A stretch of 64,000 nucleotides of DNA from Acutalibacteraceae bacterium (GTDB taxonomy: Bacteria; Bacillota; Clostridia; Christensenellales; CAG-138), in assembly GCA_963640685.1 (NCBI GenBank), contig CAVIAA010000001.1, forward strand, positions 2,395 to 66,394, written 5' to 3'. The translations under genes were made by a program, and so were the position numbers. The notes under the pieces were generated by a model, which did no database searches, was not told the origin of the DNA, and saw only the letters and a program-made list of their open reading frames with translations. Positions 21,870 to 54,342 of this stretch are shown piece by piece (the stretch's first letter is position 1; every line of letters starts with the position of its first letter).

Positions 21870-22110
21870 CAATATAGCGATGACGAAGAGGAGTATGCGC
21901 TTATTCCGCACAAGAGAGACGGCTCCGCCGGCTGAGAGGGCTGTTTGCATGAAAGGCGCAGAAGGTCGCTTCCGAGCTTCGGAGATGAACAAACAGTAGT
22001 TTCCGGCGGCCTCGCCACGTTACGGCGAAGGAGAGGGGCGCTCAGCGCCCAATAAAGGTGGTACCGCGGGTCCGCTCGTCCTTTAAAAAATGGGACGGAG
22101 CGGGCTTTTT
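21870..22110 (+). promoter_or_regulatory. T-box leader (tRNA-Val sensing) upstream of valS
   Basis: Stem I opening GCGATGACGAAGAGGAGTA (21877..). Specifier region GCGCAGAAG-GUC-G-CUUCCGAGC, with GUC at 21965..21967. T-box sequence AATAAAGGTGGTACCGCGG at 22051..22069. Terminator GTCCGCTCGTCC...GGACGGAGCGGGC plus TTTTT. Confidence 0.85.
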
Positions 22111-22149
22111 ATTGCAAATTATTTCATTGGTGATACAGGAGGAAAACAC

Positions 22150-24792
22150 ATGAGCAAAGAGCTGCCTAAGACCTACGACCATTCCGACGTGGAAAGCAGG
22201 CTTTATGAGGCATGGGAAAGCAAGGGCTACTTCCATGCCGAGGCGAACCCTAAGAAGGATCCGTACTGCATAGTTATGCCGCCGCCAAACATAACCGGCA
22301 AGCTGCATATGGGACATGCGCTGGACAATACCCTTCAGGATTCCATAATACGCTATAAGCGCATGAACGGCTTTGAAACGCTGTGGCTGCCGGGAACGGA
22401 CCACGCCTCCATAGCTACCGAGGTCAAGATAGTTACCGAGATGGCAAAGGAGGGCATCGACAAGCGGGATATAGGCCGCGAGGCGTTCCTTAAGAGGGCG
22501 TGGGAATGGCGGCGTGAATACGGCGGAACCATAGTTAAGCAGCTGCGCAAGATGGGCTCCTCGTGCGACTGGGAGCGTGAACGCTTTACGATGGACGAGG
22601 GCTGCAACAGAGCGGTAACCAAGGTGTTCGTCGACCTGTACAAAGAAGGACTCATATATCGCGACGACCGCATAATAAACTGGTGCCCGGTCTGCCAAAC
22701 CGCGCTTTCGGATGCGGAGGTGGAATACGAGGAGCAGGCCAGCCACCTTTGGCACGTTCGCTACGACGCGCCGGATGAGAGCTATTCGATAACCTGCGCG
22801 ACCACCCGCCCCGAGACGATACCCGGCGACACGGCCATAGCCGTGAACCCCGAGGATGAGCGGTATAAGGATCTCGTCGGCAAGACCGTCATAGTGCCGG
22901 TCGTCGGCCGCGAGATACCAATAGTCGCCGATGAATACGTTGAAAAGGAGTTCGGCTCCGGCGCGGTCAAGATCACCCCCTGCCACGACCCGAACGACTT
23001 TGAGGTGGGCGTAAGGCACGGCCTGCCCCGCATAAGGGTGTTTACCGACGACGGACACCTGAACGAGCTGGGCGCACCGTATACCGGCATGACCACTATG
23101 GAGTGCCGCAAGGCTATCGTTGCCGATATGGAAAAGAGCGGCAACCTCGTTAAAATAGAGGACTACACGCACAACGTCGGCGTTTGCTACCGCTGCCACA
23201 ACACCGTTGAGCCGCTGACCAGCCTGCAGTGGTTCGTGAGCATGAAGCCGCTTGCAAAGGAGGCGATAAGGGTCGTTGAGGAGGGCGAGGTCAAGTTCGT
23301 TCCGGAGCGGTTCAACAAGACCTACTTCAACTGGATGTATAACATCAGGGATTGGTGTATTTCGCGCCAGCTCTGGTGGGGACACAGAATACCGGCATAT
23401 TACTGCGAGAACCCGTCCTGCGGCCATATCGAGGTAACGCTGGACGAGCCCAAGACCTGCCCCGTATGCGGCGGAAGGGTGCATCAGGATGAGGACGTGC
23501 TGGATACATGGTTCAGCTCCGGAATGTGGCCGTTCTCGACCTTGGGCTGGCCGGATGAAACGCCGGAGCTCAAGTATTTCTACCCGACCAGCACGCTGGT
23601 CACCGGCTATGACATAATCTTCTTCTGGGTAGCCCGAATGATAGTTTTCGGCACCAAGGTAATGGGCAAAATACCATTTGATACCGTGTATGTGCACGGC
23701 ATAGTGAGGGATGAGCTGGGCAGGAAGATGTCCAAGTCGCTCGGCAACGGCATTGACCCGCTGGAGATAATCAAGGACTACGGCGCGGATTCACTCCGCT
23801 TCAGCCTTGTTACAGGCAACAGCGCGGGCAACGATATGCGCTTCTCCAATAAAAAGGTCGAGGCAGCGCGCAACTTCTGCAACAAGGTATACAATGCCTC
23901 CCGCTTCGTGCTGATGAACATCGGCGATGAGGGCGTTGGCGAAATAGACATGGATAAGCTGGATATAGCGGATAAGTGGATACTGCACCGGCTGAATACT
24001 GTTGCGGGCGAGGTCACGGCGAACATGGACGGCTTTGAGCTGAATGTTGCGGCGCAGAAGGTATACGACTTCATATGGACGGAGTTCTGTGACTGGTACA
24101 TCGAGATGGCCAAGCCGAGGCTCTACGGTGAGGACGAGGGCGCAAAGGCCAACGTTCGGGCGATACTCGTAAGGGTGCTGGGCGATGCAATGAAGCTGCT
24201 GCATCCCTTCATGCCGTTCATAACAGAGGAGCTGTATCAGAGCCTGCCCAATGCGGAGGAGACCATAATGCGGGCAAGCTGGCCCAAGTATACCGAGGCG
24301 TTTGAGTTCGCAGCGGAGGCAGCCGAGATGGAGGGCGTTATGGATGTGATACGCTCCATAAGGAACCTGCGGGCGGAGATGAACGTTCCCCCGGCAAGGC
24401 GTACAGCAGTTTATATGGTCACCCCCGCAGAAAACGCCGCTGCATTTGAAATGGCCAAGGCATACCTTATGAAGCTCGCGGGAGCGGAGAGCGTGACCGT
24501 TCAGCAGGATAAGAACGGCATACCCAAGGGCGCCGTGAACGCCGTGTGTGCTATGGGCGAGGCGTTCATACCGCTGGATCAGCTCATCGACATAGACAAG
24601 GAGATCGAGCGGGTAAGCAAGGAGATAGCCAAAATGCAGGGCGAGGTTGCAAGGGCAGAGGGCAAGCTCAATAACCCGGGCTTCGTTGCAAAGGCGCCGG
24701 AAAAGGTCATAAACGAGGAGAAGGAAAAGCTTGCCGTTGCAAGAGAAATGCTCTCAAAGCTCGAGCATCGCCTTGCGGAGCTGCAAAAATAA
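22150..24792 (+). CDS. valS: Valine--tRNA ligase
   Basis: HIGH-type motif PPPNITGKLHMGHAL, KMSKS present, and a C-terminal coiled coil. Start is the ATG at 22150 after AGGAGGA. The upstream part of the track ORF lies inside the T-box terminator. Confidence 0.97.
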   Translation: MSKELPKTYDHSDVESRLYEAWESKGYFHAEANPKKDPYCIVMPPPNITGKLHMGHALDNTLQDSIIRYKRMNGFETLWLPGTDHASIATEVKIVTEMAKEGIDKRDIGREAFLKRAWEWRREYGGTIVKQLRKMGSSCDWERERFTMDEGCNRAVTKVFVDLYKEGLIYRDDRIINWCPVCQTALSDAEVEYEEQASHLWHVRYDAPDESYSITCATTRPETIPGDTAIAVNPEDERYKDLVGKTVIVPVVGREIPIVADEYVEKEFGSGAVKITPCHDPNDFEVGVRHGLPRIRVFTDDGHLNELGAPYTGMTTMECRKAIVADMEKSGNLVKIEDYTHNVGVCYRCHNTVEPLTSLQWFVSMKPLAKEAIRVVEEGEVKFVPERFNKTYFNWMYNIRDWCISRQLWWGHRIPAYYCENPSCGHIEVTLDEPKTCPVCGGRVHQDEDVLDTWFSSGMWPFSTLGWPDETPELKYFYPTSTLVTGYDIIFFWVARMIVFGTKVMGKIPFDTVYVHGIVRDELGRKMSKSLGNGIDPLEIIKDYGADSLRFSLVTGNSAGNDMRFSNKKVEAARNFCNKVYNASRFVLMNIGDEGVGEIDMDKLDIADKWILHRLNTVAGEVTANMDGFELNVAAQKVYDFIWTEFCDWYIEMAKPRLYGEDEGAKANVRAILVRVLGDAMKLLHPFMPFITEELYQSLPNAEETIMRASWPKYTEAFEFAAEAAEMEGVMDVIRSIRNLRAEMNVPPARRTAVYMVTPAENAAAFEMAKAYLMKLAGAESVTVQQDKNGIPKGAVNAVCAMGEAFIPLDQLIDIDKEIERVSKEIAKMQGEVARAEGKLNNPGFVAKAPEKVINEEKEKLAVAREMLSKLEHRLAELQK

Positions 24793-25400: not shown

Positions 25401-25436
25401 GCCTGTCAACAGCCCTATTTGTTGACAGGCTTTTTT
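25401..25436 (+). terminator. Intrinsic terminator after mntP
   Basis: GCCTGTCAAC-agccctattt-GTTGACAGGC followed by TTTTTT. Confidence 0.85.
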
Positions 25437-25450
25437 ATGGGAATTATAAT
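25422..25450 (+). promoter_or_regulatory. Consensus sigma-A promoter placed for a leaderless transcript
   Basis: TTGACA (25422..25427), 17-nt spacer, TATAAT (25445..25450). The ATG at 25457 is only 6 nt after the -10 box, and there is no RBS. Confidence 0.6.
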
Positions 25451-25456
25451 CAAGGC

Positions 25457-26365
25457 ATGAATCGCGAAGAGCTTGACCGTAAAGCGGCGAGGGCGAAGGA
25501 TCGCCGTATATATCATATTTGCTCGGCAAAGAGGGCTGCTGCGGCGCTTATGGCGGCGGGTCTTCTCTGCTCTGCTGGCTGCGCCAAAAAGCAGGCCGCA
25601 GAGGACGACACCTATGTAATGGTGGATATAGGCTACTTCAACGAGGAGAACTACGGCGACGACACAACGTTCGTTGCGATAACCGGCGGGTTTTCAACGC
25701 CGGAGCCTGCGGTAACGCCTGTTCCGACGCCGGAGCCAACGGCAAAGCCGCGCAGCACAAAAAAACCGAGCAGCACCGCAAAGGCGGACAAAAAAGAAGA
25801 GACAAAGAAGGAAGAAAAAAAGACCGAGGAGGAGAAGGCCGAGGCTACGCCAACGCCTGAGCCGAAGAAAAAGACCCCATATTACAGTAGCTACACCAGG
25901 CAGTCGCTTTCATATGAGAGCGGTTCGTCTGCTGTGAGCTTTGAGACGACCACATTTGACGGCAGCAGCGTCAGTGAGAGCATCTTCAGCAAGAGTTTTG
26001 TCACCATGATAAACATATGGACGACTACCTGAGCGTCCTGCATGCAAGAGATGGGTGATCTCTCAGAACTCGCAAAGGAATATAGCGGCAGCGGCTTCAG
26101 GATATATGGCCTTGCGGCGGATGTTACGCCGGATTCCTCAACGCTTATAGCCAGCGCAAAAGCCCTGTTTGAATCGGCAGGGGGCAGCCATACCAACCTT
26201 ACCTGCAGCACCAGCGCCCGCAGGGCGATGATGGACGGCGTGAGCGTCGTGCCCACGACCAAGTTTTATGACTCGGAGGGCAAGCTCATAACCGTCGTTC
26301 ACGGCGCAAAGAGCAAGCAAAAATGGATAGATATAATTGAGACGGTGATGAATGAAAAAGCGTAG
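25457..26365 (+). CDS. Exported TlpA/ResA-like thioredoxin-fold protein; candidate selenoprotein with a UxxC redox motif (UGA 26030..26032 read as Sec)
   Basis: Track ORFs 25457..26032 and 26042..26365 share one frame. Read-through gives MINIWTTT-U-ASC-MQEMGDLSELAKEY, in register with the NFWATWCxPCxxEMP consensus. The C-terminal half carries VVPTTKFYDSEGKLI. The N-terminus has a signal anchor (AAAALMAAGLLCSAGC) and a PT/KE-rich linker. Confidence 0.7.
26047..26063 (+). promoter_or_regulatory. SECIS-like hairpin downstream of UGA 26030
   Basis: AGAGAU-GGGUG-AUCUCU: a 6-bp stem starting 14 nt after the UGA, with a 5-nt loop starting with G. Confidence 0.6.
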
Positions 26366-26492
26366 TATTATTTCTCTTGCAATAGCAGCGGTGGGCTTGA
26401 CCTTTATCGTCATAGGCGCGGTAAGGGGCGAGGCTGGTGCCGTTATGCAGAAGGCTGTAATGATATGCATGGAGTGTATAGGCCTTGGATAA
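26352..26492 (+). CDS. 46-aa single-TM micro-protein with a C-terminal CxxC (resembles, from memory, the 'CD1871A-family CXXC' small proteins)
   Basis: Absent from the ORF track because it is under 60 aa. Translation: MKKRSIISLAIAAVGLTFIVIGAVRGEAGAVMQKAVMICMECIGLG. It overlaps the upstream stop by 14 nt and the downstream start by 8 nt. Confidence 0.65.
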   Translation: MKKRSIISLAIAAVGLTFIVIGAVRGEAGAVMQKAVMICMECIGLG

Positions 26493-27411
26493 GAAAAAGA
26501 GCAAAAAAAACAAAAATAACCACCCCTTTTTAAGGGCGAGGACCTACTTTCAGGCCTGCTGGACGCTGCTTACAAACAGCTATGCCTCAGGCTTTATAAA
26601 CGGAACGATATATCAGGGCGGAGTTAAAAGCGTGTGCGTGCCCGGGCTGAACTGCTATTCCTGCCCCGGCGCGTGGGGCGCCTGCCCGCTGGGCTCGCTG
26701 CAGAACGCACTTGCGGGCAGGGTGCAGGGCTTCCCGTTTTACGTCGTAGGGACGCTGATAACGATAGGCGCGCTGCTGGGCAGGATAGTCTGCGGCTGGC
26801 TGTGCCCGTTCGGCCTCGTGCAGGATCTTCTGTTCAAGCTGCCGCCAAAGCGGAAAATACGCGCGCTGCCCGGCGAAAGATATCTGCGCAAGCTGCGCTA
26901 TGTGATACTCGTAGTCATGTGCATACTGCTGCCGATGCTGGTAAAAACATCCTACGGCCTCGGTATGCCGTGGTTCTGCAAGTGGATATGCCCCTCAGGA
27001 ACGCTGCTGGGCGGCCTGCCGCTCTTTGCGCTGAACGAGAGCCTGCGCAGCGCTGTCGGCTGGCTGTTCAGCTGGAAGCTGTTCCTGCTGGTCGTGATAC
27101 TGCTATGCTCTGCGCTCATGTTTAGGCCGTTCTGCCGGTATCTGTGCCCTCTCGGCGCGATATACGGGCTTATGAACCCCGTGTCCCTCGTAAGGATGCG
27201 GGTGAGCAGGAGCCGCTGCACGCAGTGCGGCGCCTGCCAGCGTGCCTGTGGGCTGGATATACCGGTATACAAGGAGCCTAACTCGACCGACTGCATACGC
27301 TGTGGAAAGTGCGTCACGGTATGCCCGAGCAGCGCGCTGAAGCTGAACGTTGAGCTGAAGGGCAGGCGCAAGCGCAGGCGTACTGCCGAGGAGAGCGCGG
27401 ATGAGGTATGA
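26485..27411 (+). CDS. NapH/YccM-like membrane polyferredoxin (4Fe-4S binding protein)
   Basis: Four CxxCP/Cx3CP motifs (CYSCP, CGWLCP, CKWICP, CRYLCP) between TM segments. Two ferredoxin motifs follow: CTQCGACQRAC and CIRCGKCVTVCP. The TTG start is 8 nt after GGAGTG. Confidence 0.8.
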   Translation: MDKKKSKKNKNNHPFLRARTYFQACWTLLTNSYASGFINGTIYQGGVKSVCVPGLNCYSCPGAWGACPLGSLQNALAGRVQGFPFYVVGTLITIGALLGRIVCGWLCPFGLVQDLLFKLPPKRKIRALPGERYLRKLRYVILVVMCILLPMLVKTSYGLGMPWFCKWICPSGTLLGGLPLFALNESLRSAVGWLFSWKLFLLVVILLCSALMFRPFCRYLCPLGAIYGLMNPVSLVRMRVSRSRCTQCGACQRACGLDIPVYKEPNSTDCIRCGKCVTVCPSSALKLNVELKGRRKRRRTAEESADEV

Positions 27412-27952
27412 GCCGGAGCTGATACGCCTTAAGAACAGAAGCTACGGCGTGCTCCGCAGCCCGAGCCCGGCTGAGGGCGGCAGAGTGCTGGAGCTGATGC
27501 GGGCCTGCACCGCCGAAACCGAGTACCTTATAGAATATCCGGATGAGATAAGCCATAGCGACGAGAGCGAGGCTGCGCTTATATTTGCAGCCGGCGAATC
27601 AGCGGGCAGGCTGCTCATCGTTTGCGATATCGAGGGTGAGCTTGCAGGGCTCTGCTCGCTCAGCTGCGATGGGATCACGAAGTTCAAAATAAGGCACCGC
27701 GCCGCGGCCGGCATATGCATATTAAAAAAATACTGGGGCATAGGCATTGGCAGGGCGATGATGAGCGCAATAGAGGCGCAGGCCAAAGCGGCGGGGCTTA
27801 GCCAGCTCGAGCTGGAGCTTATAGAGGGCAACGAAAGGGCAATGGGGCTTTATTCCGCACTTGGCTACCACGAGACCGGAGCGCTGCCAAATGCGATACG
27901 CACAAGAGATGGCAGGAGCCTCAGCCTGTACACTATGATAAAGCAAATATAA
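27401..27952 (+). CDS. GNAT family N-acetyltransferase
   Basis: Acetyl-CoA motif ILKKYWGIGIGRAMM...NERAMGLYSALGY. It overlaps the upstream gene by 11 nt. Confidence 0.8.
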   Translation: MRYEPELIRLKNRSYGVLRSPSPAEGGRVLELMRACTAETEYLIEYPDEISHSDESEAALIFAAGESAGRLLIVCDIEGELAGLCSLSCDGITKFKIRHRAAAGICILKKYWGIGIGRAMMSAIEAQAKAAGLSQLELELIEGNERAMGLYSALGYHETGALPNAIRTRDGRSLSLYTMIKQI

Positions 27953-28006
27953 AAACCCCCGTTTGTCAGCCGGCAATGCATGTTGGCCGGTAAACGGGGG
28001 AGTTTT
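27951..28006. terminator. Bidirectional compound terminator
   Basis: AAAAACCCCCGTTT...CCGGC..GCCGG...AAACGGGGGAGTTTTT between convergent genes. Confidence 0.8.
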
Positions 28007-28022
28007 TATACCAGAGCGAGCC

Positions 28023-28946
28023 TTAGCGCGGCAGCTTGCTGTACTCTACGGCTATACGGGAGGCTGCGCGGGCGTTGTTGTAGGCGAGCTGCAGGTTGGA
28101 GGCGAGGGATTCGCCGCCGGTGAGATCCTTTATGCTGGCAAGCAGGAAAGGCGTCGTGTTCTTGCCGTGTATGCCCTGCTCCTTCGCCATTGCGAGCGCC
28201 TCGTTTATTACGGACTCCATCTTGTCAAAATCCAGCTCGTATTCCTCGGGTATCGGGTTTGCAATGAGCACACCGCCCGCAAGGCCAACGTCCCATTTTG
28301 TCTTTATTACCCTCGCAGCTTCGGCGGGGTTCTTAAGGCGGTAGTCTACCTTAAAGCCGCTTCTGCGGCAGTAGAAGGCGGGGAAGTCCTCGGTATCCAT
28401 GCCCAGCACCGGCACGCCCATGGTCTCGAGGTACTCAAGGGTAAGCCCGATATCCAGTATGGATTTTGCACCGGCACAAACCACCGCGACCGGCGTGTGC
28501 GCAAGCTCCTGAAGGTCTGCGCTGATGTCCATGGTCTCCGTTGCGCCGCGGTGCACGCCGCCTATGCCGCCTGTCGCAAACACACGGATGCCGGCCAGCG
28601 AGGCTATGAGCATAGTGGTTGCAACGGTGGTAGCGCCGGTCTTGCCGGTTGCGAGGTACACGGCAACGTCCCTGCGGCTGACCTTGCCAACGTCATTTGC
28701 GCGGCACATTATCTCAAGCTCGTCGGCGTTAAGGCCAACCTTGAGCTTGCCGCCGATGATGGCGGTAGTTGCGGGCACTGCGCCTGCGCCGCGGACTATT
28801 TCCTCGACCTTGTGCGCAAAGCCCAGATTCTCCGGGAATGGCATGCCGTGGCTGAGTATGGTGCTCTCGAGGGCAACCACCGGCCTGTTTTCGGCTATCG
28901 CCTGCTGAATCTCGGGTGTGATGCTGAGGTAATCCTTTGTAGTCAT
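28023..28946 (-). CDS. psuG: Pseudouridine-5'-phosphate glycosidase
   Basis: VVALESTILSHGMPFPENL and GGIGGVHRG (indigoidine synthase A-like family). Confidence 0.9.
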   Translation of the reverse strand: MTTKDYLSITPEIQQAIAENRPVVALESTILSHGMPFPENLGFAHKVEEIVRGAGAVPATTAIIGGKLKVGLNADELEIMCRANDVGKVSRRDVAVYLATGKTGATTVATTMLIASLAGIRVFATGGIGGVHRGATETMDISADLQELAHTPVAVVCAGAKSILDIGLTLEYLETMGVPVLGMDTEDFPAFYCRRSGFKVDYRLKNPAEAARVIKTKWDVGLAGGVLIANPIPEEYELDFDKMESVINEALAMAKEQGIHGKNTTPFLLASIKDLTGGESLASNLQLAYNNARAASRIAVEYSKLPR

Positions 28947-28952
28947 GTTCTT

Positions 28953-30050
28953 TTATCCTCTTTCGGTAATAATATTTTCTATGAGCTCCGGGCAGATATC
29001 GGGGTTTATCGTGGTTGCCGAGGACACAGCCGCGGCTCCCGCCGCAAGGGCATAATCCAACGTCCGGTCTATGTCAAAGCCGTTTATGTAGCAGTATACT
29101 ACCGCGGCGGTGAAGGCATCTCCCGCGCCGGAGGCGTTGACTATGCTGTCAGCGGGGTGCAGGGCGCGCTGTATGCACTGACCGCTTATGTCCATATACA
29201 GGCAGCCCTCCCGCCCAAGGGATACGAATATGCGCTTTACACCACGGTCGAGAAGTATACCGCAGGCGGCCTTTACACCCTCGAGCGTATCGGTGTTTCT
29301 ATCGGTAAGCACGGCAAGCTCCATTCGGTTTGGCTTCAAGGTATGCACGCAGCCGACATACGGCTTGAGCCGTCTCGCATAGGCCGAGGATACGGGGTCG
29401 CAGAAGAGCGGCAGGCTGCTGCCGTATCTTGAGGCAATGCCGTCGATGACCGCCTCCGGCAGCGCCGGATCAAAAATGAGCAGTCGCGCCCCTTTAATTA
29501 TGCTGTCCCTGCGCTTTATGAACTCCATGTCCATATGCTGAAGCACCGACATATCCGAGAGCGCAACGTACATTTCCCCACGCTCGTCAAGCAGAGACAT
29601 ATAGGTTGAGGAGGGGTGGCCGTCAACCGTCATGCACTGGCTCATGTCTATGCCTGCCGCGGCGGATTCTTCGCGTATCATCCTGCCGTAAAGGTCGGAG
29701 CCGAGCGCGGTCATCAGCTTGACGCTGCCGCCAAGGCGGGCGAGGTTTTCGCATATGTTGCGTGTAACGCCGCCCAGCGATACGCCCATGCTGCCCGGGT
29801 TGCTGTCCGCCATTATTATCGGGTTTTTGCTGCGCCCGCATATGTCTACGTTTGCTGCGCCTATGCCAACTGCGTAGTCGCAGTCCTTTACAAGGTATAT
29901 CCGCCCACTTATATAGCCCTTCTTTTGCAGGTTGGATATATGCACGGCGACCGAGGTGCGGGCTATGTTCAGCCGTGAGGCTATCTCGCTCTGCTCAATG
30001 TCCGGCTGCTTTTTGATTATTTCGAATATTTCCCGCTCTCGGTTTGTCAT
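28953..30050 (-). CDS. psuK: PfkB-family kinase (pseudouridine kinase-like) fused to an N-terminal winged-helix domain
   Basis: N-terminus REREIFEIIKKQPDIEQSEIASRLNIARTSVAVHISNLQKKGYI. The PfkB motifs are GIGAANVDI and NASGAGDAFTAA. It is adjacent to psuG. Confidence 0.8.
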   Translation of the reverse strand: MTNREREIFEIIKKQPDIEQSEIASRLNIARTSVAVHISNLQKKGYISGRIYLVKDCDYAVGIGAANVDICGRSKNPIIMADSNPGSMGVSLGGVTRNICENLARLGGSVKLMTALGSDLYGRMIREESAAAGIDMSQCMTVDGHPSSTYMSLLDERGEMYVALSDMSVLQHMDMEFIKRRDSIIKGARLLIFDPALPEAVIDGIASRYGSSLPLFCDPVSSAYARRLKPYVGCVHTLKPNRMELAVLTDRNTDTLEGVKAACGILLDRGVKRIFVSLGREGCLYMDISGQCIQRALHPADSIVNASGAGDAFTAAVVYCYINGFDIDRTLDYALAAGAAAVSSATTINPDICPELIENIITERG

Positions 30051-48640: not shown

Positions 48641-48834
48641 GACTAGAAAACCTCCTAAAGAAAAAGAGAATTAAGTTTATAAACCTCTGAAATTCAGCGT
48701 TTTCATTATAGCACAGCCGGCGGTGACTTTCCAGTAGAAATAATAGATATTATTTTCACGCACTTTCCGCCTGTGAAAACAGAAAAATGCCGTGCCTGCT
48801 GGAAAAAATAGCTCTGTAAAACGTGGAGCAACGG

Positions 48835-48843
48835 TGTTATAAT
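48835..48843 (+). promoter_or_regulatory. Extended -10 promoter element (TGTTATAAT) placed for a leaderless apbE mRNA
   Basis: TGT-TATAAT ends at 48843, and the ATG at 48850 follows after 6 nt. This geometry matches 25445..25459. Confidence 0.45.
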
Positions 48844-48849
48844 CATGGA

Positions 48850-49839
48850 ATGAAGAAATGTAAGGTAAAAATGTATGGACTCTTAGCGGCCGCATTTGCG
48901 CTGTGCATGAGCGGGTGCAGTGCCGCGCCGGCGTATAATTCTGCCGTTGGGTTCTATCTCGATACTGTGGTCACGGTCTCCGGCTATGCCGACGAGGCGG
49001 TGCTGCGCTCTGCCGTGGATAAGTGCGGCGAATACGAGGCGCTGCTCAGCAGGACGGTTGAGGGCAGCGATGTATGGCGCATAAACCACGCAAACGGCCA
49101 GCCGGTCGAGGTATCCGACGAGACGGCGGAGCTGCTTGAAACGGCGCTTGAGGTATGCGAAAAGAGCAGCGGCGCGCTGGATATAACCATTGCACCGTGC
49201 AGCAGCCTCTGGGACTTTAAGGCGGAATCGCCTGCGCTGCCGGATGAGAAGGCGATAGCGAAGGCGGCGAAGCTCGTTGACTACACAAAGCTGAAGCTCG
49301 ACGGTAATACCGTAACGCTCCCTGACGGCATGGGCATCGATCTCGGTGCGGTCGCAAAGGGTTACATTGCGGATAAGATAGTCGAATACCTGCGCACAGA
49401 GGGGGTAAAGAGCGCTATCGTGAACCTCGGCGGAAATGTTGCCCTGGTCGGCGGCAAGCCGGATGGCAGCGCATGGACGATAGGCATACAGGACCCAAAC
49501 AGGGAGGACGGGACGTCGGCATACAGCATAAGCGGGCAAGACGAAAGCATAGTTACGAGCGGCGTTTACCAGCGCGGCTTTGATTTGGGCGGCATAAGGT
49601 ATCACCACATACTGGACGCCGAAACGGGGTACCCGGTACAAAACGGTTTGTCCTCGGTAACGATAATAACCGAAAGCTCGGCAATTGCTGATGCAATGTC
49701 CACGGCCTGCTTCGTTATGGGGCTGCGGGAAGGGCTGAGCTTTGCCCAAAGCATGGGCGTTGATGCGGTATTTATAGACGCGGAGGGAAATATGCACTGT
49801 ACGCCCGCCATTGAGGGCAGGCTGGAAAGGGCAGAGTAA
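48850..49839 (+). CDS. apbE: FAD:protein FMN transferase ApbE (lipoprotein)
   Basis: Signal and lipobox MKKCKVKMYGLLAAAFALCMSGC. ApbE motifs DITIAP, GIDLGAVAKGY and HHILD. An alternative start is the ATG at 48871. Confidence 0.85.
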   Translation: MKKCKVKMYGLLAAAFALCMSGCSAAPAYNSAVGFYLDTVVTVSGYADEAVLRSAVDKCGEYEALLSRTVEGSDVWRINHANGQPVEVSDETAELLETALEVCEKSSGALDITIAPCSSLWDFKAESPALPDEKAIAKAAKLVDYTKLKLDGNTVTLPDGMGIDLGAVAKGYIADKIVEYLRTEGVKSAIVNLGGNVALVGGKPDGSAWTIGIQDPNREDGTSAYSISGQDESIVTSGVYQRGFDLGGIRYHHILDAETGYPVQNGLSSVTIITESSAIADAMSTACFVMGLREGLSFAQSMGVDAVFIDAEGNMHCTPAIEGRLERAE

Positions 49840-53301: not shown

Positions 53302-54342
53302 ATGAACAACGACGTTCGCCTGACCTCGATGACATCCTGCGGCGGCTGAGCTGCCAAAATAGGTCCGGGAGTGCTGGACGCAATGCTTTCGACTCTGCCG
53401 AAAAATTCCGACCCGAGGCTCATAGTGGGCTTTGACACGGCGGATGACGCGGCAGTATATAAAATAAACGACGACACGGCGATAATTCAAACCGTGGATT
53501 TTTTTCCGCCGATGGTGGACGACCCGTATACCTTCGGTCAGGTCGCGGCGGCCAATGCGCTCAGCGACATATATGCGATGGGCGGCGAGCCAAAGCTGGC
53601 GCTTAACCTCTTCTGCTTCCCCTCAAAAAAGCTGCCGGAGGAGGCCATAAAGGCCATCCTTGCAGGCGGGGCGGATAAGGTGCTTGAGGCGGGGGCGATA
53701 CTCTGCGGCGGGCACACTATCGAGGATCCGGAGCCGAAGTACGGCCTTGCCGTTACCGGCTTTGTGAACCCGGGCAGGGTGCTTTCGAATGCATCTGCAA
53801 GGGAGGGCGACCTGCTGATACTTACAAAGCCCATCGGCAGCGGCATACTGACGACCGCGGCAAAGGCGCAGCTTCTCTTTGGTGAGCAGGAAAAGCAACT
53901 GATAGCCACTATGACGGCGCTAAACGCAAAGGCGCAGCGCTCAATGATGAAATTCGATATCAACTCCTGCACCGACATAACCGGCTTCGGTCTTATGGGG
54001 CATGTGCGCGAAATGGCGGAGGGCAGCGGGCTCACGGCCGAGATAACGGCGGACGCGGTGCCGATGCTGGATGGTGCGCTGAGCTTCGCAAATATGGGCA
54101 TAATACCCGCCGGCGCGTACCGCAACAGGGAATTTATCGGGGAAAAGGTCAGCATACGGGAGGACGTGGACAGAGCCGTTGCCGATATACTCTTTGACCC
54201 GCAGACCTCCGGAGGGCTGCTCATTAGCCTGCCGGAAAAGCAGGCATACGCCCTTTTGGAGGATATACGGAGCCATACGCCTGCCGCCGCCATAATCGGC
54301 CGAATGAAGGCCAAGGGATGGTATGCGATAGAGGTAATATAA
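53302..54342 (+). CDS. selD: Selenide, water dikinase SelD, Sec-containing form (UGA 53347..53349)
   Basis: MNNDVRLTSMTSCGG-U-AAKIGPGVLDAML continues in frame into track ORF 53371..54342. The GxG[C/U]xxK active-site loop and the AIR-synthase-like body are present. Confidence 0.88.
53363..53379 (+). promoter_or_regulatory. SECIS-like hairpin downstream of the selD UGA
   Basis: GUCCGG-GAGUG-CUGGAC: a 6-bp stem (one G-U pair) starting 13 nt after the UGA, with a 5-nt loop. Confidence 0.55.

Follow-up and report, generated by a model that had tools for sequence, protein, structure and literature searches.

A 64,000-nucleotide stretch of DNA from an Acutalibacteraceae bacterium (assembly GCA_963640685.1, contig CAVIAA010000001.1, positions 2,395 to 66,394 of the forward strand; the whole of this stretch is referred to below as the window) contains an operon whose first three genes encode an exported thioredoxin-fold protein (gene 1), a 46-residue membrane micro-protein ending in a CxxC motif (gene 2) and a NapH-like polyferredoxin (gene 3). 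Comparison with related genomes indicates that this trio, all three products of which carry conserved redox cysteines, is a real, self-contained module of anaerobic bacteria. The evidence inclines slightly towards an iron–sulfur (Fe-S)-driven transmembrane relay that would convey reductant to an exported thiol or selenol reductase, as a counterpart of the CcdA/DsbD systems. In such a relay, the polyferredoxin would take up electrons on the cytoplasmic side, by means of its 2x[4Fe-4S] domain and two inner CX3CP cysteine pairs, and pass them across the membrane to outward-facing cysteine motifs. These outer cysteines and the CxEC tail of the micro-protein would constitute a thiol–disulfide relay keeping the lipid-anchored thioredoxin reduced, and the reduced thioredoxin would then reduce oxidized targets at the cell surface. 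In the host clade, the attacking cysteine of the thioredoxin is very probably replaced by a UGA-encoded selenocysteine (Sec).

The coherence of the trio is apparent from a synteny scan in which one genome was taken per species. The micro-protein motif is present at at least 544 genome loci, and neighbourhoods were examined at the best 80 of these, which are spread over many clostridial families, Treponema, Negativicutes and a single metagenome-assembled genome (MAG) of Acidobacteriota. Directly downstream of the micro-protein lies a polyferredoxin ortholog at 78 of the 80 loci (one exception is a contig end), and a thioredoxin-fold gene is adjacent at about 65, mostly upstream and in three cases downstream. 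Overlaps between the genes also recur, measuring 8 or 14 nucleotides between micro-protein and polyferredoxin and 4 nucleotides between thioredoxin and micro-protein. When the other neighbours are clustered, no family occurs at more than seven loci (an Rrf2-like regulator at 7, a response regulator at 6). The reverse check gives the same arrangement: three polyferredoxin homologs taken solely for their long contigs are all preceded by a Redoxin gene and, between the two, an open reading frame (ORF) of 48 or 56 residues. The initial annotation of this DNA had made its proposal depend on conservation of the three genes in related genomes, and they are indeed syntenic across Clostridia, Treponema and Negativicutes; the same order in dozens of species points to an arrangement that exceeds chance. 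The fourth gene of the operon, a GNAT acetyltransferase first counted as a component of the redox system, has to be removed from it. It is found at none of the 80 distant loci and is missing from two loci (L004 and L007) inside the Sec clade itself, and is a co-transcribed, lineage-specific passenger outside the conserved module.

Judging by its sequence, the product of gene 1 is certainly exported. A signal peptide with the lipobox SAGC, in which Cys42 is encoded at 25580..25582, is followed by a tether rich in Pro, Thr, Lys and Glu and by a TlpA/ResA-like thioredoxin-fold domain; most thioredoxin orthologs also have a lipobox, and those of Treponema have a signal peptide. The active site reads W-T-T-T-U-A-S-C, corresponding to U192-A-S-C195, and a VPTT cis-Pro loop is present. 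An exported thioredoxin fold, a CxxC-type active site and a cis-Pro loop are traits of the TlpA/ResA/DsbE superfamily, in which gene 1 is best placed as a member and not as an ortholog of any of the named proteins, the best NCBIfam matches being below their cut-offs (ResA 41 vs 170, DsbE 27.8 vs 123, TlpA 25.1 vs 230). Among the distant orthologs the active site takes the form W-x-T-x-C-x-x-C-I-x-E-M-P, and the context C-x-P-C-x-x-E-M-P corresponds to that of TlpA/ResA-type reductases. The Sec clade departs from this pattern in having E-M-G where E-M-P is otherwise conserved.

The same protein could be seen as the terminal enzyme, an extracytoplasmic Prx-like peroxidase or oxidant scavenger supplied straight from the polyferredoxin, and not as a reductase acting on the disulfides of other proteins. 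Peroxides react rapidly with Sec, no conserved substrate gene accompanies the trio at the 80 loci, and AhpC/TSA (PF00578, 31.6 bits, cut-off 26) is the sole Pfam model that gene 1 passes; UxxC Prx-like thiol:disulfide oxidoreductases are, moreover, a listed family of selenoproteins (PMC13188914). Such a role is nevertheless unlikely, given that the active site is of the thioredoxin type, W-x-x-x-C-x-x-C with a TlpA-like E-M-P, and not the T-x-x-C peroxidatic motif of Prx, and that ResA, DsbE and TlpA are the top NCBIfam matches.

Gene 2 is a member of NCBIfam family NF040920, the CD1871A family of CXXC motif-containing proteins (55.4 bits against a cut-off of 32). Proteins of this family comprise a short basic N-terminus, one transmembrane (TM) segment and a C-terminal CxxC, which lies in a nearly invariant C-terminus, K-A-x-x-I-C-(L/M/T)-E-C-I-G-(I/L)-G, with K-A-x-x-x-C-x-E-C-x-G-x-G as its invariant positions. 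In a profile search, 1493 representative clusters at 50% identity match the micro-protein. Some proteins of 240–275 residues (P0085, P0109, P0148 and P0185) carry the CD1871A segment as their C-terminus, together with about four extra TM helices, and in these fused members a basic stretch stands ahead of the last TM segment. This is consistent with the N-in, C-out orientation predicted for the micro-protein; the placement of its CxxC on the outer side, as first suggested, is supported at the level of topology prediction. In the searchable open-access literature, no paper mentions CD1871A, and the neighbouring Clostridioides difficile locus tags yield no functional information; CD1871/CD18710 is named there solely as the permease of an ABC transporter or as cargo of a conjugative transposon. 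Judging by locus-tag order, the name-giving CD1871A lies inside the conjugative transposon CTn5 of C. difficile 630, which comprises CD1845-CD1878a (PMC3158075), and the trio may therefore be mobile in some lineages.

Gene 3 is related to E. coli NapH (28% identity, E = 1e-16), with scores for the NapH/MauN models that are below the cut-offs (82.6 vs 213.05 for TIGR02163, 78.4 vs 234 for NF007013), and the CcoG and NosR models of NCBIfam match it weakly. It has the architecture of NapH, namely four predicted TM helices, two CX3CP pairs common to both proteins (C103/C107 and C217/C221) and a C-terminal 2x[4Fe-4S] domain. The 2x[4Fe-4S] domain and the four CxxCP/CX3CP motifs originally attributed to it are all present, the latter as one CxxCP and three CX3CP. 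Its 18 motif cysteines (C51, C57, C60, C67, the pairs C103/C107, C165/C169 and C217/C221, and eight in the 2x[4Fe-4S] domain) are each kept in 98–100% of the 74 orthologs compared, and 15 are present in every one. Six of these, C51, C57, C60, C67, C165 and C169, belong to two loops of the opposite, predicted outer face; they are invariant wherever the micro-protein is present, across these 74 orthologs, and none of them exists in E. coli NapH, whose motif cysteines are confined to the clusters and the inner two CX3CP pairs.

The AlphaFold2 model of gene 3 (predicted local distance difference test 78.6, predicted template modelling score 0.77) has TM helices at residues 14-38, 85-98, 131-152 and 193-211. 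As the ferredoxin domain is devoid of a Tat signal, it must be cytoplasmic, and the 153-192 loop with C165/C169 is consequently outside. Provided that helix 14-38 crosses the membrane, as the four-helix architecture of NapH would have it, the 39-84 loop (C51-C67) would lie outside as well. Topology prediction thus assigns the thioredoxin, the micro-protein's CxxC tail and the six additional cysteines of the polyferredoxin to the same outer side, in agreement with the topological part of the electron relay put forward in the initial annotation; its other part, the flow of electrons, is a matter of inference. When the two halves of gene 3 are compared with hhalign, the segment formed by TM helix and CX3CP is supported as an internal repeat (E = 1.4e-4, probability 52%), and the outer loops are not. 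Three longer polyferredoxins (P0206, P0207 and P0220), considered as possible fusions with the micro-protein or the thioredoxin, proved to be assembly artefacts with internal duplications. In two Clostridia/Christensenellaceae MAGs, a second, distant NapH-like paralog (23–25% identity) lies just downstream of the polyferredoxin (L031, 6315..6884; L051, 6186..6878).

The up to eight cysteines that the outer face would present, of which the polyferredoxin would contribute six and the micro-protein two, also bring to mind the handling of metals or metalloids (for instance Cu, selenium or sulfur species), in the manner of the cupric reductase CcoG or of TlpA-ScoI copper delivery, in place of a general reduction of protein disulfides. 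The weak matches to the CcoG and NosR models would agree with this, as would the position of the operon, which adjoins mntP on its downstream side in the host clade. The adjacency to mntP is, however, confined to the clade of the window and interrupted by a terminator, no metal transporter, chaperone or metalloenzyme recurs beside the trio among the 80 loci, and the hosts offer no obvious cuproenzyme context, which makes a function of this kind improbable.

As for the direction of transfer, gene content alone does not fix it, and the cysteine pairs present at either face of the membrane would be compatible with both directions. Disulfide formation of the DsbA/DsbB type, in which the exported thioredoxin would oxidize substrates and its electrons would pass inward, via the micro-protein and the polyferredoxin, to cytoplasmic acceptors, is nonetheless even less probable than a metal-related role. 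The low-potential 2x[4Fe-4S] domain would be a poor sink for the electrons of disulfide formation, and the reductive relay is favoured because the active-site context is TlpA/ResA-like, as is typical of reductants, and because the hosts live strictly anaerobically and possess low-potential ferredoxins. The reductive relay also fits what has been reported on NapH-like proteins, described as modular conduits that carry electrons across the membrane to partners outside the cytosol (PMC8238504), and on the CX3CP motifs, which are likelier to be disulfides than clusters, as NosR holds only 8 Fe (PMC5928378).

Several observations weigh against the relay. At about 15 of the 80 loci no thioredoxin is adjacent, so the core pair of micro-protein and polyferredoxin may serve other acceptors. 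Helix 14-38 of the polyferredoxin is weakly hydrophobic (mean Kyte–Doolittle hydropathy 0.41) and the presumed outer loop 39-84 is net positive, so that the placement of C51-C67 is uncertain; the AlphaFold2 model is, in addition, poor at residues 50-65. The membrane domain has no solved structure, and the sequence matches in the PDB and the Foldseek matches are to generic 2x[4Fe-4S] only. Finally, the mechanism of the relay is an inference, and this applies to the direction of the electrons, their donor and substrates, the role of the micro-protein and the preference for a thiol relay over a metal cluster at the CX3CP motifs.

Among known systems, CcdA and DsbD, with partners such as ResA, TlpA, CcmG and Etrx, offer the closest functional parallel, since here too a membrane component is proposed to keep an exported or lipid-anchored thioredoxin reduced. 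The thioredoxin shares with these partners the context WxxxCxPCxxEMP and a lipoprotein anchor (PMC3914529 for the Etrx lipoproteins). The membrane component itself is unrelated, however, being an Fe-S protein of the NapH superfamily with a cytoplasmic 2x[4Fe-4S] domain; it implies input from ferredoxin or Fe-S proteins instead of cytoplasmic thioredoxin, and it is associated with an obligatory 46-residue CxxC partner. The CcdA/DsbD domain PF02683 was found by Pfam scan in none of the four proteins, and the likeness is therefore one of functional analogy only.

Homology of the membrane core, with two cytoplasmic-side CX3CP pairs and 2x[4Fe-4S], links the polyferredoxin to NapH (of NapGH), NosR and RdhC/PceC, and the organization as a modular transmembrane conduit serving an extracytosolic redox partner is shared with the conduits that Meheust et al. 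2021 (PMC8238504) termed NapH-like. In contrast to these systems, the trio has no NapG, no flavin mononucleotide (FMN)-binding domain and no respiratory reductase, its polyferredoxin possesses the six extra invariant cysteines in the opposite-face loops, and the place of a flavinylated domain as its partner is taken by a CxxC micro-protein together with a thioredoxin. Neither NapG/NapA nor mau or nos genes occur in the neighbourhood within the window or at the 80 related loci. ApbE is known to flavinylate the extracytosolic partners of other NapH-like systems; a gene for an ApbE-type FAD:protein FMN transferase (48823..49839, plus strand), which adjoins a MATE transporter gene and with 126.6 bits stays under the equivalog cut-off, is located 21 kb from the trio.

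The chemistry that the proposed mechanism would need exists in ferredoxin:thioredoxin reductase and heterodisulfide reductase, where one-electron Fe-S centres drive two-electron disulfide reduction beside a cysteine pair. Those enzymes are soluble or peripheral, not membrane-spanning, and no sequence relationship was detected. With the catalogued UxxC TlpA/redoxin/Prx-like selenoproteins (PMC13188914), gene 1 has in common the presence of Sec in place of the first Cys of CxxC and the existence of Cys orthologs, and it differs from them as a lipoprotein within a conserved trio. The selenocysteine-assisted organometallic (SAO) system (Haft and Gwadz, bioRxiv 10.1101/2022.07.06.499078) is likewise a clostridial gene cluster rich in selenoproteins, one of its products being a thioredoxin-like UxxC protein. 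Identity with the trio was considered and rejected, as none of the four proteins matches the Sao models and the families differ: SaoT is of cytosolic type with about 85 residues and SaoC has about 158 residues ending in CC, sizes and motifs unlike those of the trio, and the locus of the trio is without ABC transporter or MerB-like genes and without the nine-gene neighbourhood.

The UGA codon of gene 1 very probably encodes Sec, according to several lines of comparative evidence. It is the single in-frame TGA of the gene, located within WTTT-U-ASC, and the frame remains open beyond it up to 26365. In all 59 distant syntenic orthologs its column is occupied by the first Cys of CxxC, as expected if, as originally noted, a UGA-encoded residue occupies the nucleophile position of a TlpA/ResA-type domain. 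Six distinct related loci have kept the TGA despite diverged flanks (TTT, TQT or TRT before, AS, VS or PS after), and across the Sec loci the domain retains 58–72% amino acid identity, with the frame continuing past the TGA. The genetic code is standard, since mntP and gene 3 both terminate at TGA as a normal stop codon. The 59 Cys-containing orthologs also show that the module does not, as earlier proposed, end in a selenol as a rule, and that it does not track Sec use; Sec is rather, on this alignment, a clade-specific substitution and not a defining trait.

Downstream of the UGA, a hairpin resembling a Sec insertion sequence (SECIS) has a 6-bp stem, which starts 18 nucleotides from the U of UGA, and a 5-nucleotide loop, which starts at 24 nucleotides. 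Both its position and its sequence, wobble positions included, are kept in the six Sec loci, while 58 Cys orthologs have no consistent hairpin at this position; the Gly codon GGU of E-M-G forms part of its loop. It resembles the hairpin behind the UGA of selD, GUCCGG-GAGUG-CUGGAC, which has the same 6 bp and 5 nucleotides and lies 1 nucleotide closer. The selD gene of the window carries its in-frame TGA (53347..53349) at the canonical Cys/Sec site, TSCGG-U-AAKIGPG (MNNDVRLTSMTSCGG-U-AAKIGPG), and as a UGA-containing selenoprotein it supports Sec decoding in the host. ORF finders place its start at GTG 53371, past the UGA, and selD is truncated at the Sec codon in every public assembly examined. 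In these assemblies (L001-L008), gene 1 is also split at the Sec codon, into ORFs of 160–194 and about 100–109 residues, and all 16 close database homologs of the post-TGA part (59–99% identity) are fragments of about 91–109 residues that start after the TGA. In one of the assemblies, L005 (ERZ28761118), the genes for the micro-protein, the polyferredoxin and the GNAT are in addition broken by many frameshifts, of which long-read errors are the probable source.

Some results count against Sec. Support for the hairpin of gene 1 comes from conservation, without covariation or compensatory changes; Rfam gives no SECIS match for it at either gathering or permissive thresholds, and its folding energy is no better than that of shuffled sequences. 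SelA and SelB (by a scan of ORFs) and tRNA-Sec were not found within the 64-kb window, where two ORFs considered as selD and selA (48823 and 49811) turned out to be ApbE and the MATE transporter. That gene 1 is a pseudogene, as its division into two ORFs by gene callers in every public assembly could suggest and as the initial annotation had allowed for, or that the adjacency of the genes is coincidental, is effectively refuted by the retention of the TGA and the downstream frame over diverged loci, by the match of the TGA to the Cys of orthologs, by the same kind of TGA in selD and by synteny in dozens of species.

The layout of the operon agrees with its first description: the promoter, the four tightly overlapping genes on one strand and the bidirectional terminator are all found at the coordinates given then (Table 1). 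Successive genes overlap by 14 (genes 1 and 2), 8 (genes 2 and 3) and 11 nucleotides (genes 3 and 4). The final terminator (−32.2 kcal/mol, z = −4.6; none of 200 shuffles equally stable) is bordered by an A-run and a U-run. At the other end (25401..25450), the hairpin that terminates mntP includes the −35 hexamer of the operon promoter in its 3′ arm, and termination of mntP and initiation of the operon thus use a common sequence. Further upstream, a T-box leader (21871..22086, plus strand; 118.7 bits) precedes valS (22090..24792). Beyond the operon, the minus strand carries the psuG-like gene (28023..28946) and a PfkB-kinase gene (28953..30050); a 489-residue ORF antisense to them (27963..29432, plus strand) is almost certainly spurious, since public gene calls hold the minus-strand genes only.

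Table 1. Coordinates of the operon features and of selD in the window
Feature	Position	Strand	Details
mntP intrinsic terminator hairpin	25401..25430	+	12-bp stem, 6 GC pairs, then TTTTTT
Sigma-70-type promoter, TTGACA-17 nt-TATAAT	25422..25450	+	12/12 consensus matches
Gene 1, exported thioredoxin-fold lipoprotein, 302 residues	25457..26365	+	
In-frame UGA at nucleophilic first-Cys position of CxxC	26030..26032	+	Alignment with Cys orthologs
SECIS-like hairpin AGAGAU-GGGUG-AUCUCU	26047..26063	+	Kept in 6/6 Sec loci
Gene 2, 46-residue CxxC membrane micro-protein	26352..26492	+	
Gene 3, NapH-superfamily polyferredoxin, 308 residues, TTG start	26485..27411	+	
Gene 4, GNAT acetyltransferase (PF00583)	27401..27952	+	
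Bidirectional intrinsic terminator	27951..28006	both	Common to operon and convergent psuG-like gene
selD (selenophosphate synthetase), itself a selenoprotein	53302..54342	+	TIGR00476, 379 bits vs cut-off 125

Currently, the searchable open-access literature contains no functional description of the trio, as the initial annotation had supposed, and no report that links a NapH-like protein with both a thioredoxin and a CxxC peptide; a 2025 survey of clostridial disulfide enzymes does not mention ferredoxin or TlpA-type partners. The qualification 'undescribed' thus applies to the trio as a unit and not to its parts, which are known as NF040920, as NapH-like conduits (PMC8238504) and as UxxC selenoproteins (PMC13188914). 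Tentatively, and with less assurance than the relay itself, the trio might represent a third class of transmembrane disulfide-reductant conduit beside DsbD and CcdA, driven by ferredoxin or Fe-S centres and characterized by alternating inner and outer CX3CP pairs and a CxxC micro-protein. If this is true, the class would extend over at least several hundred species of anaerobes, among them Treponema, Negativicutes and Clostridia of the gut. It would also provide a thiol-relay function for the long-unexplained CX3CP motifs of NapH, NosR and RdhC, a superfamily in which the function of these motifs is explicitly unassigned (PMC5928378), and the Sec clade would be a natural high-reactivity variant for trapping partners. 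As a practical by-product, the annotation of gene 1 and selD, split or truncated at their Sec codons, can be corrected. The supply of reductant to the cell surface of strict anaerobes is poorly understood beyond the CcdA/DsbD paradigm, and the module offers a concrete, testable hypothesis, as it connects the NapH/NosR/RdhC superfamily with a CxxC peptide and a thioredoxin that is exported, and does so in hundreds of species, many of which are abundant in the gut.

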